Assembly: GCA_028698185.1 (NCBI GenBank)
Contig: JAQVDW010000012.1
Coordinates: 14,667-46,666, forward strand
Reading direction: 5' to 3'
DNA length: 32,000 nucleotides
Origin: Erysipelotrichaceae bacterium
GTDB lineage: Bacteria; Bacillota_I; Bacilli_A; Erysipelotrichales; Coprobacillaceae
The position numbers and the translations under genes are program-made. The notes below the pieces were generated by a model. That model did not search any database. It was not told the origin of the DNA and worked only from the letters and a program-made list of their open reading frames with translations. This document shows positions 1 to 3,720 of the stretch, piece after piece; positions within the stretch are counted from its first letter, which is position 1; each line of letters opens with the position of its first letter.

Positions 1-848
1 TAAGGGCGGACCCGATGGGCGGTCAGCTTATGAACCAACTTTTTCATGATCTTCGAGCAGTCATTGACATTCGCGAGCAAGACGCTCTGGTTGCCTAGTG
101 GGATGCCCGCTTCTGCAAGCTTGTCAAGGGCAACAATCGCTTCTGGCGATATCTCTTTGGGGTGGTTGAAGTGGGTGTTGATCCACAGGTTCTTGTGTTT
201 TTTCAATATGGCAACCAGACTGTCAGTAATCCTGAAAGGCAGCACGACCGGCGTCCGGGTTCCGATGCGGATCACTTCGACGTGCTCGATTTCGCTGATT
301 TTTTCCAGCAACAATTTTATAGTCTCGTCCTCAAGCAGGAAGGGGTCGCCCCCTGAAAGCAGCACATCGCGGATTTCGGGATGGTTGGCGATGTATTCGA
401 TTCCGGCCTGGTAATGTTCGATGGTCGGGTTGAAATCGGTGTCGCCAACCTTCCGTTTCCGGGTGCAGTGACGGCAGTACATGGCGCACACGTTGGAAAC
501 ATGGAACAGGACCCTATCAGGGTAGCGGTGGGTGATCCCGGTCACCGGGCTGTCACCGTCCTCATTAAGAGGGTCCAAGATGTCGCAGCTCGAGACATCG
601 AGCTCCTTGGGACTGGGGAATGCCTGCTGGAAGACCGGGTCGTTCTGGTAGTCGCCCGCGTCCACCAGGGACAGATAATATGGGGTTATCGACAAAGGAA
701 ATGTCGCTATTGTTTTCTCTAGTTGGCCACGCAATTCAGGCTCGAAACGGATTTCGAGGATCTTCTCGACCTGTTCAATCGAGTTGATCCGGTTTTGCAG
801 TTGCCATCTGTAGTCATGCCATTTTTCATTGTTTTTCTTGATATTCAT
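1..848 (-). CDS. kamA: KamA-family radical SAM aminomutase (lysine 2,3-aminomutase-like), N-terminal ~282 codons; C-terminus lies beyond the left window edge
   Basis: Absent from the ORF track (no stop inside the window). My minus-strand translation from ATG (complement of 846-848): MNIKKNNEKWHDYRWQLQNRINSIEQVEKIL..FPLSITPYYLSLVD..SPVTGITHRYPDRVLFHVSNVCAMYCRHCTRKRKVGD..VLLSGGDPFLL..IRIGTRTPVVLP..NTHFNHP..GNQSVLLANVND..KLTAHRVRP(edge). CxxxCxxC radical-SAM motif in the KamA-typical context. AAGGAGGA SD 5 nt upstream. Confidence 0.88.
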   Translation of the reverse strand, partial: MNIKKNNEKWHDYRWQLQNRINSIEQVEKILEIRFEPELRGQLEKTIATFPLSITPYYLSLVDAGDYQNDPVFQQAFPSPKELDVSSCDILDPLNEDGDSPVTGITHRYPDRVLFHVSNVCAMYCRHCTRKRKVGDTDFNPTIEHYQAGIEYIANHPEIRDVLLSGGDPFLLEDETIKLLLEKISEIEHVEVIRIGTRTPVVLPFRITDSLVAILKKHKNLWINTHFNHPKEISPEAIVALDKLAEAGIPLGNQSVLLANVNDCSKIMKKLVHKLTAHRVRP

Positions 849-1148
849 TCATATCCTCCTTGTGTAATTTGTGTTAGACCCTTAAAAATAAAAAAGTACC
901 CCAACTCAAATAGAGTTAGAGTACTTAAACTTCGCTTGCGCTCGAATCATACCACCAAAGTAGTATGGGTCATGATGAATCATCCTAACCAAGTCCCAGT
1001 TCTAAAATTCTGATTTTTCACAGCCAATTTCTTTATTATGCGGCAGACTTATCAATACCGATAGTTATACCTGTATCAACTCATAAGCCAAATACTCAAG
1101 GTGCTACTTTACCATTAATCATAAAAAGTTTCCGGTGAAACCATACTG
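849..1148 (-). promoter_or_regulatory. ~290-nt structured 5' leader of kamA ending in an intrinsic terminator (candidate riboswitch/attenuator, class unresolved)
   Basis: Lies between a good sigma-A-type promoter (1149-1177) and the kamA SD. 7-bp long-range complementarity (plus-strand CCATACT 1141-1147 / AGTATGG 962-968) encloses ~170 nt like a P1 helix. The terminator at 884-924 sits ~24 nt before the SD. Confidence 0.5.
884..924 (-). terminator. Rho-independent terminator inside the kamA leader
   Basis: On the minus strand: GTACTCTAACTC-TATTT-GAGTTGGGGTAC (12 bp including two G-U pairs; extendable by AA/TT), followed by TTTTTTATTTTT. Confidence 0.8.
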
Positions 1149-1177
1149 AATATAACAAATAAATCCGGCTTTGTCAA
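1149..1177 (-). promoter_or_regulatory. promoter of the kamA leader
   Basis: Minus strand TTGACA (1177-1172), 17-nt spacer ending in TGt, TATATT (1154-1149). Confidence 0.6.
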
Positions 1178-1252: not shown

Positions 1253-1282
1253 TTGACAGGTTTGGGTGTTTTTTGGTATTAT
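1253..1282 (+). promoter_or_regulatory. feoA promoter
   Basis: TTGACA (1253-1258), 18-nt spacer, TGg-TATTAT extended -10 (1274-1282). Confidence 0.6.
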
Positions 1283-1341: not shown

Positions 1342-1653
1342 ATGGAAAATTCATTCAAATTCACCGGCCTGTTCAAAAGACGGCGTCGTCATCATTGCAA
1401 TCACGGCAGAAAAAATAACTGTGGCCACGGGCGGGGGAATTCATTGATTCATGCGGAATTGAACCAGGAATATACCATTAAGAAGATACGTGCTGACAAT
1501 GACAAGATCGGGAATTTTCTTTTTTCGCTGGGATGCTTTCCCGGAAGTAAAGTTACTGTTGTTTCAAAAATTGCGAACCAGTATGTTATAGTCATCAAGA
1601 ATGCCCGTTACAGCATCGACAAAGAGCTGGCCTGGTGTATCGTAGTCGACTAG
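1342..1653 (+). CDS. feoA: FeoA ferrous-iron transport protein with a ~40-aa basic Cys/His-rich N-terminal extension
   Basis: C-terminal 60 aa (EYTIKKIRADNDKIGNFLFSLGCFPGSKVTVVSKIANQYVIVIKNARYSIDKELAWCIVV) looks like a FeoA SH3-like domain. AGGAGGA SD 7 nt upstream. Immediately upstream of feoB. Confidence 0.85.
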   Translation: MENSFKFTGLFKRRRRHHCNHGRKNNCGHGRGNSLIHAELNQEYTIKKIRADNDKIGNFLFSLGCFPGSKVTVVSKIANQYVIVIKNARYSIDKELAWCIVVD

Positions 1654-1682
1654 AATGGTGGGTTATTTTTTTAATTAGTTAA

Positions 1683-1697
1683 TGATAATGATTATCA
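1683..1697. promoter_or_regulatory. Fur box, perfect 7-1-7 palindrome, in the feoA-feoB spacer
   Basis: TGATAATGATTATCA, an exact inverted repeat matching the classical Fur consensus. Confidence 0.8.
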
Positions 1698-1725
1698 TTT
1701 GGATAAGATATTGGAGGAGATAGAT

Positions 1726-3720
1726 ATGAAAATAGCATTAGCAGGTAATCCTAACAGCGGCAAGACGACGTTGTTCAATGCGATTACCGGAAAAATCGAG
1801 AAGGTCGGAAACTGGGCGGGGGTGACTATTGCCAAAAAAGAGGCATCCCTGAAAAAATCGCTGAACCGGTATTCCCAAGAAATCACGGTGGTCGACTTGC
1901 CTGGGGCATATTCGATGTCGCCCTACACATCGGAAGAGAGCATCACCCGGGAGTTCGTGGCGAACGCCAATCCGGATGTCATCGTCAACATTGTCGATGC
2001 GACCAATCTTGGGCGCAGTCTGTTTTTCACCACCCAGCTTATCGAGCTGGGAATTCCGGTGGTGATTGCTTTGAACAAATCCGATTTGGCCAAAAAGAGA
2101 AAACTGCGAATCGACCAGGAGCTGCTTGCCGGAGAATTGAACTGTCCGGTTGTGGCCATTTCAGCCCAGAACGGACTGGGGCTGGAAGGACTCGTGGACC
2201 GGGTCATCCAGGCAGTCGGGGCAAAACAGCTTTCGGCTTTTAGTCAGGGTGAAATTTCCGGAATCGGCGAAGCGAAAATCCGGGATCTCGATGAAAAACG
2301 TTATCGATATGTCGATGAAATCGTGGCCAAGGTGGAATTGCGCGATATAAAAGGCGATACGACAAACATCCAGGACAGACTGGATCGTATCCTGGCAAAC
2401 AAATGGCTGGGCATCCCGATATTCGCCTTGATAATCTGGCTGGTGTTTTCGATTTCACAAACATATGTGGGAACATATCTAGCCGACATTCTGGTGGGCT
2501 GGATCGACCGTTTCTACAGCGTTGTCGCCGGGCTGATGGGGGCCAACGTTTCGCCAATCCTGGCAACCTTGCTCCTTGACGGGATCATCGGCGGCCTTGG
2601 TGCCGTGGTTGGCTTCCTGCCTTTGATAATGGTGTTGTTTTTCCTTCTTGCGCTTCTCGAGGACAGCGGCTACATGGCCCGGGTTGCGATGATCATGGAC
2701 CGGTTTTTCAAATGGGTCGGCCTTTCGGGAAAATCGATCATTCCGATGATTGTCGGGACCGGGTGCGCCATTCCGGGAATAATGGCGACCCGGACCATCC
2801 AGGATGACCGGCAGCGGCGGACGACCGCAATGTTGACACCATTCATGCCATGTGGGGCCAAGCTGCCTGTGATTGCCCTGTTTGCAGGGGTATTTTTCGA
2901 AGACGCATCATGGGTCAGCGCATCGATGTATTTCCTGGGAATCACCATCATCATCCTGAGCGCCCTGATCATCCGCAAGATTACCGGGGATGAAAAAGTC
3001 AACGACTATTTCATAATGGAATTGCCCGAGTACCGGATTCCAAGCGTCAAACGGGCGGCGCAATCTATGCTCAACCAGGCCAAAGCCTTCATCGTCAAGG
3101 CATCGACGATAATCCTTTTGTGCAACGCGGCAATCCAGGTCATGTCGACTTTCACCTGGCAGTTAGAGGTAGTAAGCCAAGGTAACGAGGCATCGAGCAT
3201 CCTGGCCAGTGTGGCTGCGCCGTTTGCTCTAATCCTGATTCCCTTGGGATTCGGGGTTTGGCAGCTGGCCGCGGCGGCTATCACGGGCTTCATTGCCAAG
3301 GAGAATGTCGTCGGGACCCTGGCGGTTGTCTTTTCAATCACCAACTTCATCAATGTCGATGAACTCGCATTGGTTGGCGGGGCCGGGAATATTGCCGGGG
3401 TGATGGGACTGACAAGCGCCTCAGCTCTGGCTTATCTGGCTTTCAATCTTTTCACGCCCCCTTGTTTTGCGGCCATCGGGGCCATGAATGCCGAACTGGG
3501 TTCCAAAAAATGGCTCTTTGGGGCAATCGCCTTCCAGCTGGCGATGGGATACGTTGTCGCTTTTGTAATCTATCAGGCAGGCACATTGCTCCAAACCGGT
3601 TCGACCGGCCAAGGGTTCCTGTGGGGACTTGTAGCCGTTGGGGCGATCGTTGCCACAATAGCATACCTGATGTTCAAAAGACCGAATGAACCAATTCGTT
3701 CAAAATTCCAACAGGGATAG
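1726..3720 (+). CDS. feoB: FeoB ferrous-iron transporter (N-terminal GTPase plus polytopic membrane domain)
   Basis: MKIALAGNPNSGKTTLFNAITG (G1), DLPG (G3), NKSD (G4), then a long hydrophobic gate-motif region. ATG 1726 is preferred over the track's TTG 1699 because GGAGGAGA lies 5 nt upstream and the TTG sits next to the Fur box. Confidence 0.95.
   Translation: MKIALAGNPNSGKTTLFNAITGKIEKVGNWAGVTIAKKEASLKKSLNRYSQEITVVDLPGAYSMSPYTSEESITREFVANANPDVIVNIVDATNLGRSLFFTTQLIELGIPVVIALNKSDLAKKRKLRIDQELLAGELNCPVVAISAQNGLGLEGLVDRVIQAVGAKQLSAFSQGEISGIGEAKIRDLDEKRYRYVDEIVAKVELRDIKGDTTNIQDRLDRILANKWLGIPIFALIIWLVFSISQTYVGTYLADILVGWIDRFYSVVAGLMGANVSPILATLLLDGIIGGLGAVVGFLPLIMVLFFLLALLEDSGYMARVAMIMDRFFKWVGLSGKSIIPMIVGTGCAIPGIMATRTIQDDRQRRTTAMLTPFMPCGAKLPVIALFAGVFFEDASWVSASMYFLGITIIILSALIIRKITGDEKVNDYFIMELPEYRIPSVKRAAQSMLNQAKAFIVKASTIILLCNAAIQVMSTFTWQLEVVSQGNEASSILASVAAPFALILIPLGFGVWQLAAAAITGFIAKENVVGTLAVVFSITNFINVDELALVGGAGNIAGVMGLTSASALAYLAFNLFTPPCFAAIGAMNAELGSKKWLFGAIAFQLAMGYVVAFVIYQAGTLLQTGSTGQGFLWGLVAVGAIVATIAYLMFKRPNEPIRSKFQQG

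Follow-up and report, generated by a model that had tools for sequence, protein, structure and literature searches.

A terminator-coupled leader RNA upstream of ablA represents a candidate riboswitch family associated with compatible-solute genes

We analysed the untranslated leader of ablA, a lysine 2,3-aminomutase gene that is read from the minus strand of a 32,000-nt stretch of genomic DNA from an Erysipelotrichaceae bacterium (contig JAQVDW010000012.1, positions 14,667 to 46,666; hereafter the window), and found within it a structured RNA element of ~200 nt that, as far as can be told, has not been described previously. The element is almost certainly a genuine, conserved leader RNA family whose fold is coupled to an intrinsic terminator. 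We further propose it as a new riboswitch candidate, which would sense an intracellular signal of osmotic or salt stress directly and switch the downstream operon on, a reading to which we assign a probability of roughly 0.6. The original prediction for this leader, made from the sequence of the window, had claimed a structured regulatory leader containing a terminator, and both covariation and the overlap between fold and terminator uphold that claim.

Conservation of the fold was assessed in two alignments, one restricted to the 3′ domain of the element (71 sequences, aligned with MAFFT) and one covering the whole element (65 sequences). In the first, 94.4% of cells were paired and 21 of 34 pairs showed compensatory change; none of 500 shuffles reached any of five measures, and controls with slid partners were paired in 35–44% of cells. 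The second supported a structure of 58 proposed pairs, with compensatory change in 43 and 90.5% of cells paired (slid controls 37–43%), and RNAalifold predicted P1, P2, P3, Pb and Pc unaided when given the whole element. A covariance model built from the 3′ domain only gave 12 matches that all carry UGAAGUA and GAAAAA boxes upstream, which argues that the two domains form one unit.

The 5′ rod is organized around conserved boxes on its two strands (Table 1). The AAAGUAG box of the window, GAAGUAR in the family consensus, was present in 12/12 matches of the 3′-domain-only model, as was the GAAAAA of the return strand, on which GAAAWU and YGAAAAAY are conserved in the whole-element alignment. 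All five Pa pairs covary, with five to six pair types each, and the UUGAGUA box (UGAGUA in the family) forms a conserved block in the same alignment with covarying helices on either side. Compensatory changes were seen in 14 of the 15 Pb/Pc pairs and in all three Pa′ pairs; Pa′ and the pair that closes the AAAGUAG box (3:151, 98% canonical) were found by scanning the whole-element alignment itself, so their counts are not independent. That all-against-all column scan was very noisy, and Pa′ (columns 22–24 with 129–131) and 3:151 were its only credible additions. The Pb/Pc arm is missing in short natural variants (L123, L165, L166 and L187; Christensenellaceae, Haloplasma and others) and is therefore regarded as peripheral. 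At both ends of Pa, AGUA faces GAA in two purine-rich internal loops, which we infer to be loop-E/S-turn-like.

In the 3′ domain, P1 of the family has an outer UAGA/UCUA helix, a conserved internal loop and an inner GGG-RYUU strand that faces AARY-(bulged R)-CUC, with covariation in P1b at pairs 174:269 (GC/AU), 175:268 (CG/UA/UG) and 176:267 (UA/CG). P2 spans 10 positions, among them a conserved G that faces A; 98.8% of its cells are paired, and pair 179:202 is seen as GC (30), UA (19) and AU (15). In P3, 6 of 8 pairs are compensatory, and the loop reads UUUG, UUAA or GAAA across three sister genomes. The outer pairs of P4 also covary (AAAC/GUUU, AAAU/AUUU, AAGC/GCUU, AUAC/GUAU), and its GCAA tetraloop is replaced by UUCG in the sister genome G002; the subtype found in the genome of the window has two U-U mismatches in the outer stem of P4, where a UUC/GAA register is possible. 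Of the pairings read earlier from the single sequence, the local hairpin CAUAC-N10-GUAUG proved to be the covarying P3 (967-960/955-948). The 7-bp helix between AGUAUGG (1147-1141) and CCAUACU (968-962) is complementary in its letters but is not conserved: its first arm lies at or 5′ of the probable transcription start and gives way to unrelated sequence in G002, and its second arm is used by P2/P3. A second proposed helix, UUAUGAU/AUCAUGA, is not conserved either.

Table 1 Features of the ablA leader and its surroundings, in window coordinates.
Feature	Position	Strand	Details
Sigma-70-type promoter	1149..1177	(-)	-35 TTGACA 1177-1172, 17-nt spacer, extended -10 TG-n-TATATT 1157-1149
Leader 5′ extension, not conserved	1113..1142	(-)	Small hairpin GGUUUC..GAAACU; outside the family element
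Conserved RNA element	911..1112	(-)	5′ rod and 3′ four-way junction (P1-P4); whole-element alignment, match of the 3′-domain model
AAAGUAG box (consensus GAAGUAR)	1104..1110	(-)	Faces GAAAAA as the 5′ strand of internal loop 1; pair A1110/U1013
Pa 5′ strand, CACC	1100..1103	(-)	Pairs with GGCUG 1021-1025, one internal mismatch or bulge
UUGAGUA box (family UGAGUA)	1093..1099	(-)	5′ strand of internal loop 2, opposite GAAAUU 1026-1031
Rod middle arm	1042..1092	(-)	Pa′ 1090-1092/1032-1034; Pb 1083-1089/1042-1048
Rod middle arm, continued		(-)	2x2 loop GA/AA 1081-1082/1049-1050; Pc 1073-1080/1051-1058; apical part 1059-1072
Rod return strand	1013..1034	(-)	Pa′ AAA 1032-1034; GAAAUU 1026-1031; Pa 1021-1025; UGAAAAAU 1013-1020
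P1 5′ strand	991..1004	(-)	P1a UAGA 1004-1001; loop bases A1000, C999, U998; P1b GGGACUU 997-991
P2	968..990	(-)	GGUUA 990-986/UGACC 972-968; G985 opposite A973; inner 984-982/976-974; loop 981-977
P3	948..967	(-)	CAUACUAC 967-960; loop UUUG; GUGGUAUG 955-948
P4	927..947	(-)	Outer stem; tandem G-A/A-G-type loop; inner GC stem; GCAA cap 939-936
P1 3′ strand	911..926	(-)	AAGU 926-923; bulged A922; CUC 921-919; loop U918, A917, A916, C915; UCUA 914-911
Intrinsic terminator	884..926	(-)	5′ arm 926-913; loop 912-908; 3′ arm 907-894; U-tract 893-884
Start of ablA	3..860	(-)	Shine-Dalgarno AGGAGG 860-855; ATG 848-846; first 282 codons
feoA-feoB promoter	1253..1282	(+)	TTGACA, 18-nt spacer, TATTAT; 11/12 matches
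feoA	1342..1653	(+)	
feoB	1699..3720	(+)	

The way in which this fold would act on transcription follows from a shared strand, as the 3′ strand of P1 (926-911) and the 5′ arm of the terminator (926-913) are the same sequence, and the junction fold and the terminator are thus mutually exclusive. Likewise, 69 of 70 distinct family sequences have a hairpin (mean −22.7 kcal/mol) that takes up 8 nt or more of the P1 3′ strand and runs into a U-rich tail. For the leader in the window, nearest-neighbour energies were −41.8 kcal/mol with the terminator formed versus −27.7 kcal/mol for the P1-closed fold; since secondary structure by itself favours the terminator, read-through would need extra stabilization of the ON fold, which may be kinetic, during transcription, or may come from tertiary contacts together with a bound effector. 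Because the folded junction excludes the terminator, the arrangement is that of an antiterminator with ON-switch wiring, a layout common among ON riboswitches, and in that respect the suggestion of an ON switch for this leader is supported. A possible helix between UGAGUA and the (R)CUC stretch within the terminator arm was also considered by eye, and was rejected because the noisy column scan gave it no covariation support.

The ends of the transcript agree closely with what had been predicted. The near-consensus promoter scored 11 of 12 consensus matches on the minus strand, with the TG present, and transcription likely starts near 1142, so that the untranslated leader spans ~294 nt (~290 nt in the prediction) from there to the ATG at 848, without a credible open reading frame (ORF). 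The strong terminator placed 5′ of the Shine-Dalgarno sequence of the gene has a 14-pair stem (926-894) and a U-tract that extends to 884. Comparable promoters lie 10–45 nt 5′ of the conserved element in relatives, and in other species transcription apparently starts just 5′ of the UGAAGUA box; the 1113-1142 extension occurs only in the genome of the window and in the sister genome G001, and differs in G002.

A BLAST-type nucleotide search of 60 relatives with the leader retrieved only two sister genomes (91% and 77% identity; both labelled Coprobacillaceae), the rest being noise, and homologues were instead reached via ablA loci, then by sequence pattern and finally by covariance model. The same leader was found upstream of ablA in six distant Firmicutes (Acetivibrio, HGW-Firmicutes-3, Lachnotalea, Alkalibaculum, and metagenome-assembled genomes (MAGs) of a Lachnospiraceae and a Christensenellaceae member). 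A pattern of three conserved blocks, searched against a species-representative genome collection, yielded 76 loci, of which 72 are homologous over their full length and 4 are apparently chance matches. The 3′-domain model found a single copy in the genome of the window (88 bits, E 9.5e-18), matched 6 of the 80 closest ablA loci, and recovered copies missed by the pattern, which brings Fusibacter bizertensis to 3 and Vallitalea maricola to 2. In an even sample of 150 genomes from the Clostridia-type class that contains Mobilitalea, 10 (~7%) matched, four of these with two copies, and new members were found by the model at E 1e-10 to 1e-19. The family in total comprises ~85 loci. Its carriers include many Clostridia (Lachnospiraceae, Vallitaleaceae, Fusibacter and Natronincolaceae among them), six or more Sphaerochaetaceae, with complete chromosomes among them, and Haloplasma, Izemoplasmatales, a Mycoplasmatota isolate and one Fusobacteria MAG. 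The element thus occurs in several phyla, in up to 3 copies per genome and in front of non-homologous genes, a distribution that is typical of self-contained RNA sensors.

The first downstream ORF was tallied at 78 loci. It encodes AblA at 42 loci and AblB at 3, a family-3 solute-binding protein at 19, a BCCT transporter (TIGR00842, above cut-off) at 6 plus 2 more, a ProV-type betaine/proline/choline ATPase (TIGR01186, above cut-off) at 2, an OpuAC-type choline/betaine-binding protein at 2 and an OpuB-like permease at 1. Single loci are headed by a UPF0316 membrane protein, a KamA-family enzyme whose substrate is not clear, a PLP-enzyme-like protein and an unassigned product. In 5/5 loci with enough downstream sequence, the gene for the family-3 binding protein is the first of three in an ABC operon of the polar-amino-acid type, and no K+ or Na+ transporter gene was seen among the genes downstream of family loci. 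The common theme is synthesis or import of compatible solutes, and we read the gene set as an osmoprotectant regulon.

Several members of this gene set deserve separate mention. At L206 (G217:C47:9102-12202), a divergent member at 1501-1601 (+), GAAUUGGGG ... CACUUAAACUCUU, precedes a gene for a 458-aa protein that starts MFKGGIMLKSGRTPLIRARNLEKIL..NPTGHKNDR and looks PLP-dependent; it is possibly a further osmolyte-pathway gene. Of L161 (Vallitaleaceae GH51) and L165 (uncultured Eubacteriales), one has a gene for a UPF0316/PRK04164-type membrane protein and the other a KamA-family gene, whose 357-aa aminomutase product falls below the cut-offs for the Arg, Glu and Lys types. Their association with the RNA suggests that both proteins act in osmotic stress. 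At several loci (L115, L127/L162, L175/L186 and Sphaerochaetaceae loci such as L116 and L119) the first ORF begins 180–380 nt beyond the terminator; Rfam searches of these gaps found nothing among the loci scanned, and a second unrecognised element or a mis-called start would be possible explanations. In L175 and L186 the called ORF is an AblA with an N-terminal extension.

Read past the window edge, the gene behind the leader encodes a 417-aa AblA lysine 2,3-aminomutase (TIGR03820, 705 bits; cut-off 525), and is overlapped by 8 nt by ablB, which encodes a 278-aa beta-lysine N-acetyltransferase (TIGR03827, 293 bits; cut-off 205). Together, ablA and ablB produce the compatible solute N-epsilon-acetyl-beta-lysine. 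The same synthesis by ablA/ablB is cited in PMC9337991. Lysine would accordingly be consumed here for osmoprotection and not for fermentation: the gene had been taken for a lysine-catabolic kamA, and its identity as a lysine 2,3-aminomutase stands but its catabolic role does not, given that the operon encodes the ablA-ablB osmolyte pathway. The AblA of the window is at most ~68% identical to its nearest relatives, which are Clostridia, and the 3′-domain model matched only 3 of 81 genomes of the host bacterium's taxonomic family, all of the host genus; this suggests that ablAB and the leader arrived together by horizontal transfer.

On the 3′ side, ablAB is followed by a Fur-family gene (L002 12904-13383, minus) and then by a glnHPQ-like amino-acid ABC operon. 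A link between the solute-binding protein gene of that operon and the motif-controlled solute-binding proteins was considered and dropped, at just 33% identity. On the 5′ side, feoA and feoB are transcribed divergently from a strong promoter directly opposite the ablA leader. The osmolyte operon is hence flanked by an iron-uptake module and its likely Fur-family regulator, of which the latter adjoins ablB in this genome and not at other family loci. In the sister genome G001 (L004, G001:C1:2349921-2353245), the promoter-leader-terminator unit at 1501-1825 (+) is an orphan, with an opposite-strand 405-aa ORF (1953-3170, -) in place of ablA-ablB, and the Fur-family gene is found between the leader and feoA; loss or displacement of ablAB in that genome is probable.

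Comparison with known RNA families placed the leader in none of them, and current libraries do not recognise its class. No match above the gathering score of Rfam 15 was found in the whole 32-kb window, and a search of positions 800-1350 with permissive filters (E<=10) gave only chance miRNA/snoRNA/PyrG-type matches to the terminator hairpin. At E<=1, eight related loci, the leader and seven relatives, yielded nothing relevant (Lysine, T-box, DUF1646, ydaO), and at 18 further family loci no known riboswitch adjoined the motif. Two of these loci hold a Moco and a NiCo riboswitch, both unrelated and away from the motif. Neither the window nor any of 26 related loci contained a match to the ydaO model RF00379, and the lysine (RF00168) and T-box (RF00230) models did not match the leader. 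The motif is undescribed in Rfam 15 and in the searchable open literature, which omits most subscription papers, and a literature search on riboswitches of ablA/kamA, osmoprotectant/BCCT/opuC genes or K+ returned only the Na+-I and c-di-AMP precedents and the unrelated proX motif.

The family thus combines a covarying 5′ leader fold, a mutually exclusive expression platform and several non-homologous genes of one theme across taxa, the features by which riboswitches are generally recognised. In the mechanism that we propose, the more stable terminator would form when there is no signal, and transcription would end before ablA-ablB. A signal of hyperosmotic or salt stress would bind the RNA directly and stabilise a docked rod-junction fold that includes P1; with P1 closed, the terminator would be excluded and the downstream operon transcribed. 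As for the ligand, K+ or monovalent ionic strength, which rises in the cytoplasm after hyperosmotic shock and could then switch on second-phase compatible-solute genes, is our leading but tentative guess, which we hold to be possible but doubtful. It was made because the regulon has compatible-solute genes without K+ or Na+ transporter genes, and as the first cytoplasmic change after an upshift, K+ or ionic strength would fit a regulon restricted to second-phase genes. Na+, glutamate or another metabolite may serve instead. The betaine/choline transporters in the regulon make lysine an unlikely ligand; c-di-AMP is unlikely too, as it reports the opposite state and its own regulon includes K+ transporters. 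There is precedent for riboswitch control of ablA, by both the Na+-I (PMC9337991) and the c-di-AMP (PMC5737381) classes.

Certain points weigh against this interpretation and against a literal reading of the statistics behind it. The term riboswitch is drawn from architecture and gene context, ligand binding being a proposal, and the K+ idea comes solely from the gene content of the regulon. Covariation in P1 would be equally expected for the ligand-free antiterminator of an OFF switch. Both the loop-E assignment and the docking of rod and junction are read from sequence. The motifs GAACUGGG, UAGGA and CUCUAAC were fixed by the search pattern, so their invariance in the two alignments is partly an artefact; matches found by the model only carry the variants GAAUUGGG, GAACUGUG, CAGGU and CUUAAAC, with pairing kept. 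The sequences are also related to each other, and the shuffle counts therefore overstate significance and are not probabilities.

Among the alternatives, stabilization of P1 by a trans-acting partner, either an antiterminator protein or a T-box-like tRNA, is unlikely, even if the leader is a large two-domain RNA as in T-boxes and has AGUA/GAA-type loops of the kind known from T-box Stem I. The T-box model RF00230 gave no match to the leader at E<=10 and none to seven relatives at E<=1. The GGUGGUA segment that had hinted at a T-box turned out to be the 3′ strand of the covarying P3, with no free UGGN bulge, and the regulated genes belong neither to the aminoacyl-tRNA nor to the amino-acid biosynthesis class. 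Nor was a conserved neighbouring regulator gene seen at family loci, and the multi-phylum spread argues against a dedicated protein partner.

Somewhat less probable is an OFF switch, in which the P1 junction would be the default antiterminator and a ligand of osmotic relief, such as c-di-AMP or a compatible solute, would bind elsewhere, e.g., in the 5′ rod, and free the P1 3′ strand. P1 covariation alone cannot separate ON from OFF, and compatible-solute pools repress osmotically induced genes in B. subtilis; c-di-AMP riboswitches, moreover, repress ablA, eam and dapB (PMC9337991, PMC5737381). Yet all of the conserved complexity lies in the P1-containing fold, the noisy column scan revealed no conserved alternative partner that would tie up the P1 5′ strand, and the terminator exceeds the junction fold in stability by ~14 kcal/mol, which makes termination, and not read-through, look like the default. 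The regulon also has no K+ transporter genes, which are typical c-di-AMP targets, and betaine and N-acetyl-beta-lysine are so chemically diverse that they are unlikely to share one pocket.

Constitutive attenuation, or an effect on mRNA processing or stability only, in which the terminator would set a low basal level with no sensing at all, is very improbable: the terminator is strong and signal sensing is a proposal, but neither a covarying multi-helix fold of ~200 nt nor the precise overlap of closing helix and terminator arm that is seen in 69/70 members across phyla would be needed for it. The lysine-responsive ON switch of the original prediction, a divergent L-box that would induce a lysine-consuming enzyme when lysine abounds, is scarcely credible. 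In its favour, lysine is the substrate of AblA, and 19 members stand before genes for family-3 binding proteins, with Lys/Arg/Orn binders among the best matches of these proteins, all below threshold. Against it, RF00168 gave no match even at E<=10; the stretch said to be lysC-like lies in the freely varying Pb/Pc arm, which is variable or absent in relatives; ablA-ablB is an osmolyte pathway and not a catabolic one; and BCCT, OpuA-type and OpuB-type genes for betaine/choline transport, as well as amino-acid ABC transporter genes, have this RNA in front of them.

Among known systems, the Na+-I riboswitch (DUF1646, RF03071) is also a transcriptional ON switch found in Firmicutes in which the aptamer overlaps a terminator arm, and some of its members govern osmoprotectant supply through ablA, eam and dapB (PMC9337991). 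It is, however, a ~66-nt motif of two stems (P1, P2) as opposed to a ~200-nt rod with a four-way junction, RF03071 did not match, and its regulon is dominated by Na+ transporters and Na+-ATPases, none of which were seen in the regulon of the leader family. The c-di-AMP riboswitch (ydaO/kimA, RF00379) is a pseudo-symmetric OFF switch with two three-helix junctions. It shares with the present family a large, complex leader and osmotic-stress genes including kamA/ablA (PMC5737381, PMC9337991), whereas RF00379 gave no match and the wiring of the leader family is of the ON type and comes without K+ transporter genes. The lysine riboswitch (RF00168) is likewise a large multi-helix junction RNA, with a link to lysine metabolism via ablA, and the L-box uses a loop-E-type motif in a long helix, for which we infer a counterpart in the leader family. 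It differs in its five-way junction and OFF logic from a family with a four-way junction and ON wiring; its model did not match, and association of the leader family extends beyond lysine biosynthesis and transport genes to betaine/choline transporters. T-box leaders (RF00230) resemble the family in a 5′ rod with S-turn-like AGUA/GAA loops, a 3′ antiterminator that competes with a terminator, and read-through when the effector is bound. Their antiterminator is a bulged hairpin with UGGN and not a four-way junction, their model did not match, and the leader family has neither the Stem I/specifier architecture nor aminoacyl-tRNA-related genes. The proX motif of Spiribacter, an orphan candidate before a glycine-betaine/proline-betaine transporter gene, has been speculated to sense an osmoprotectant or c-di-AMP (Brewer et al. 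2021, PMC8632094). With 17 gammaproteobacterial representatives and translational, ribosome-binding-site-occluding control (PMC8632094), it differs from the leader family in taxa and in expression platform.

How high osmolarity leads to transcription of compatible-solute genes in Gram-positive bacteria is still poorly understood, and the leader family sits before such genes. For opuA and proHJ, for example, which B. subtilis induces under osmotic stress, we know of no established sensor. A ligand, if found, would add a riboswitch class, possibly for an ion without a known RNA sensor, and would help to annotate the uncharacterised family-3 ABC transporters and the UPF0316 and KamA-family genes of the regulon as osmotic-stress genes. 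Should the K+ reading be true, this would be the first RNA sensor for K+, and anaerobic Firmicutes, together with the lineages that exchange genes with them, would have in it a direct molecular osmosensor for their compatible-solute genes.

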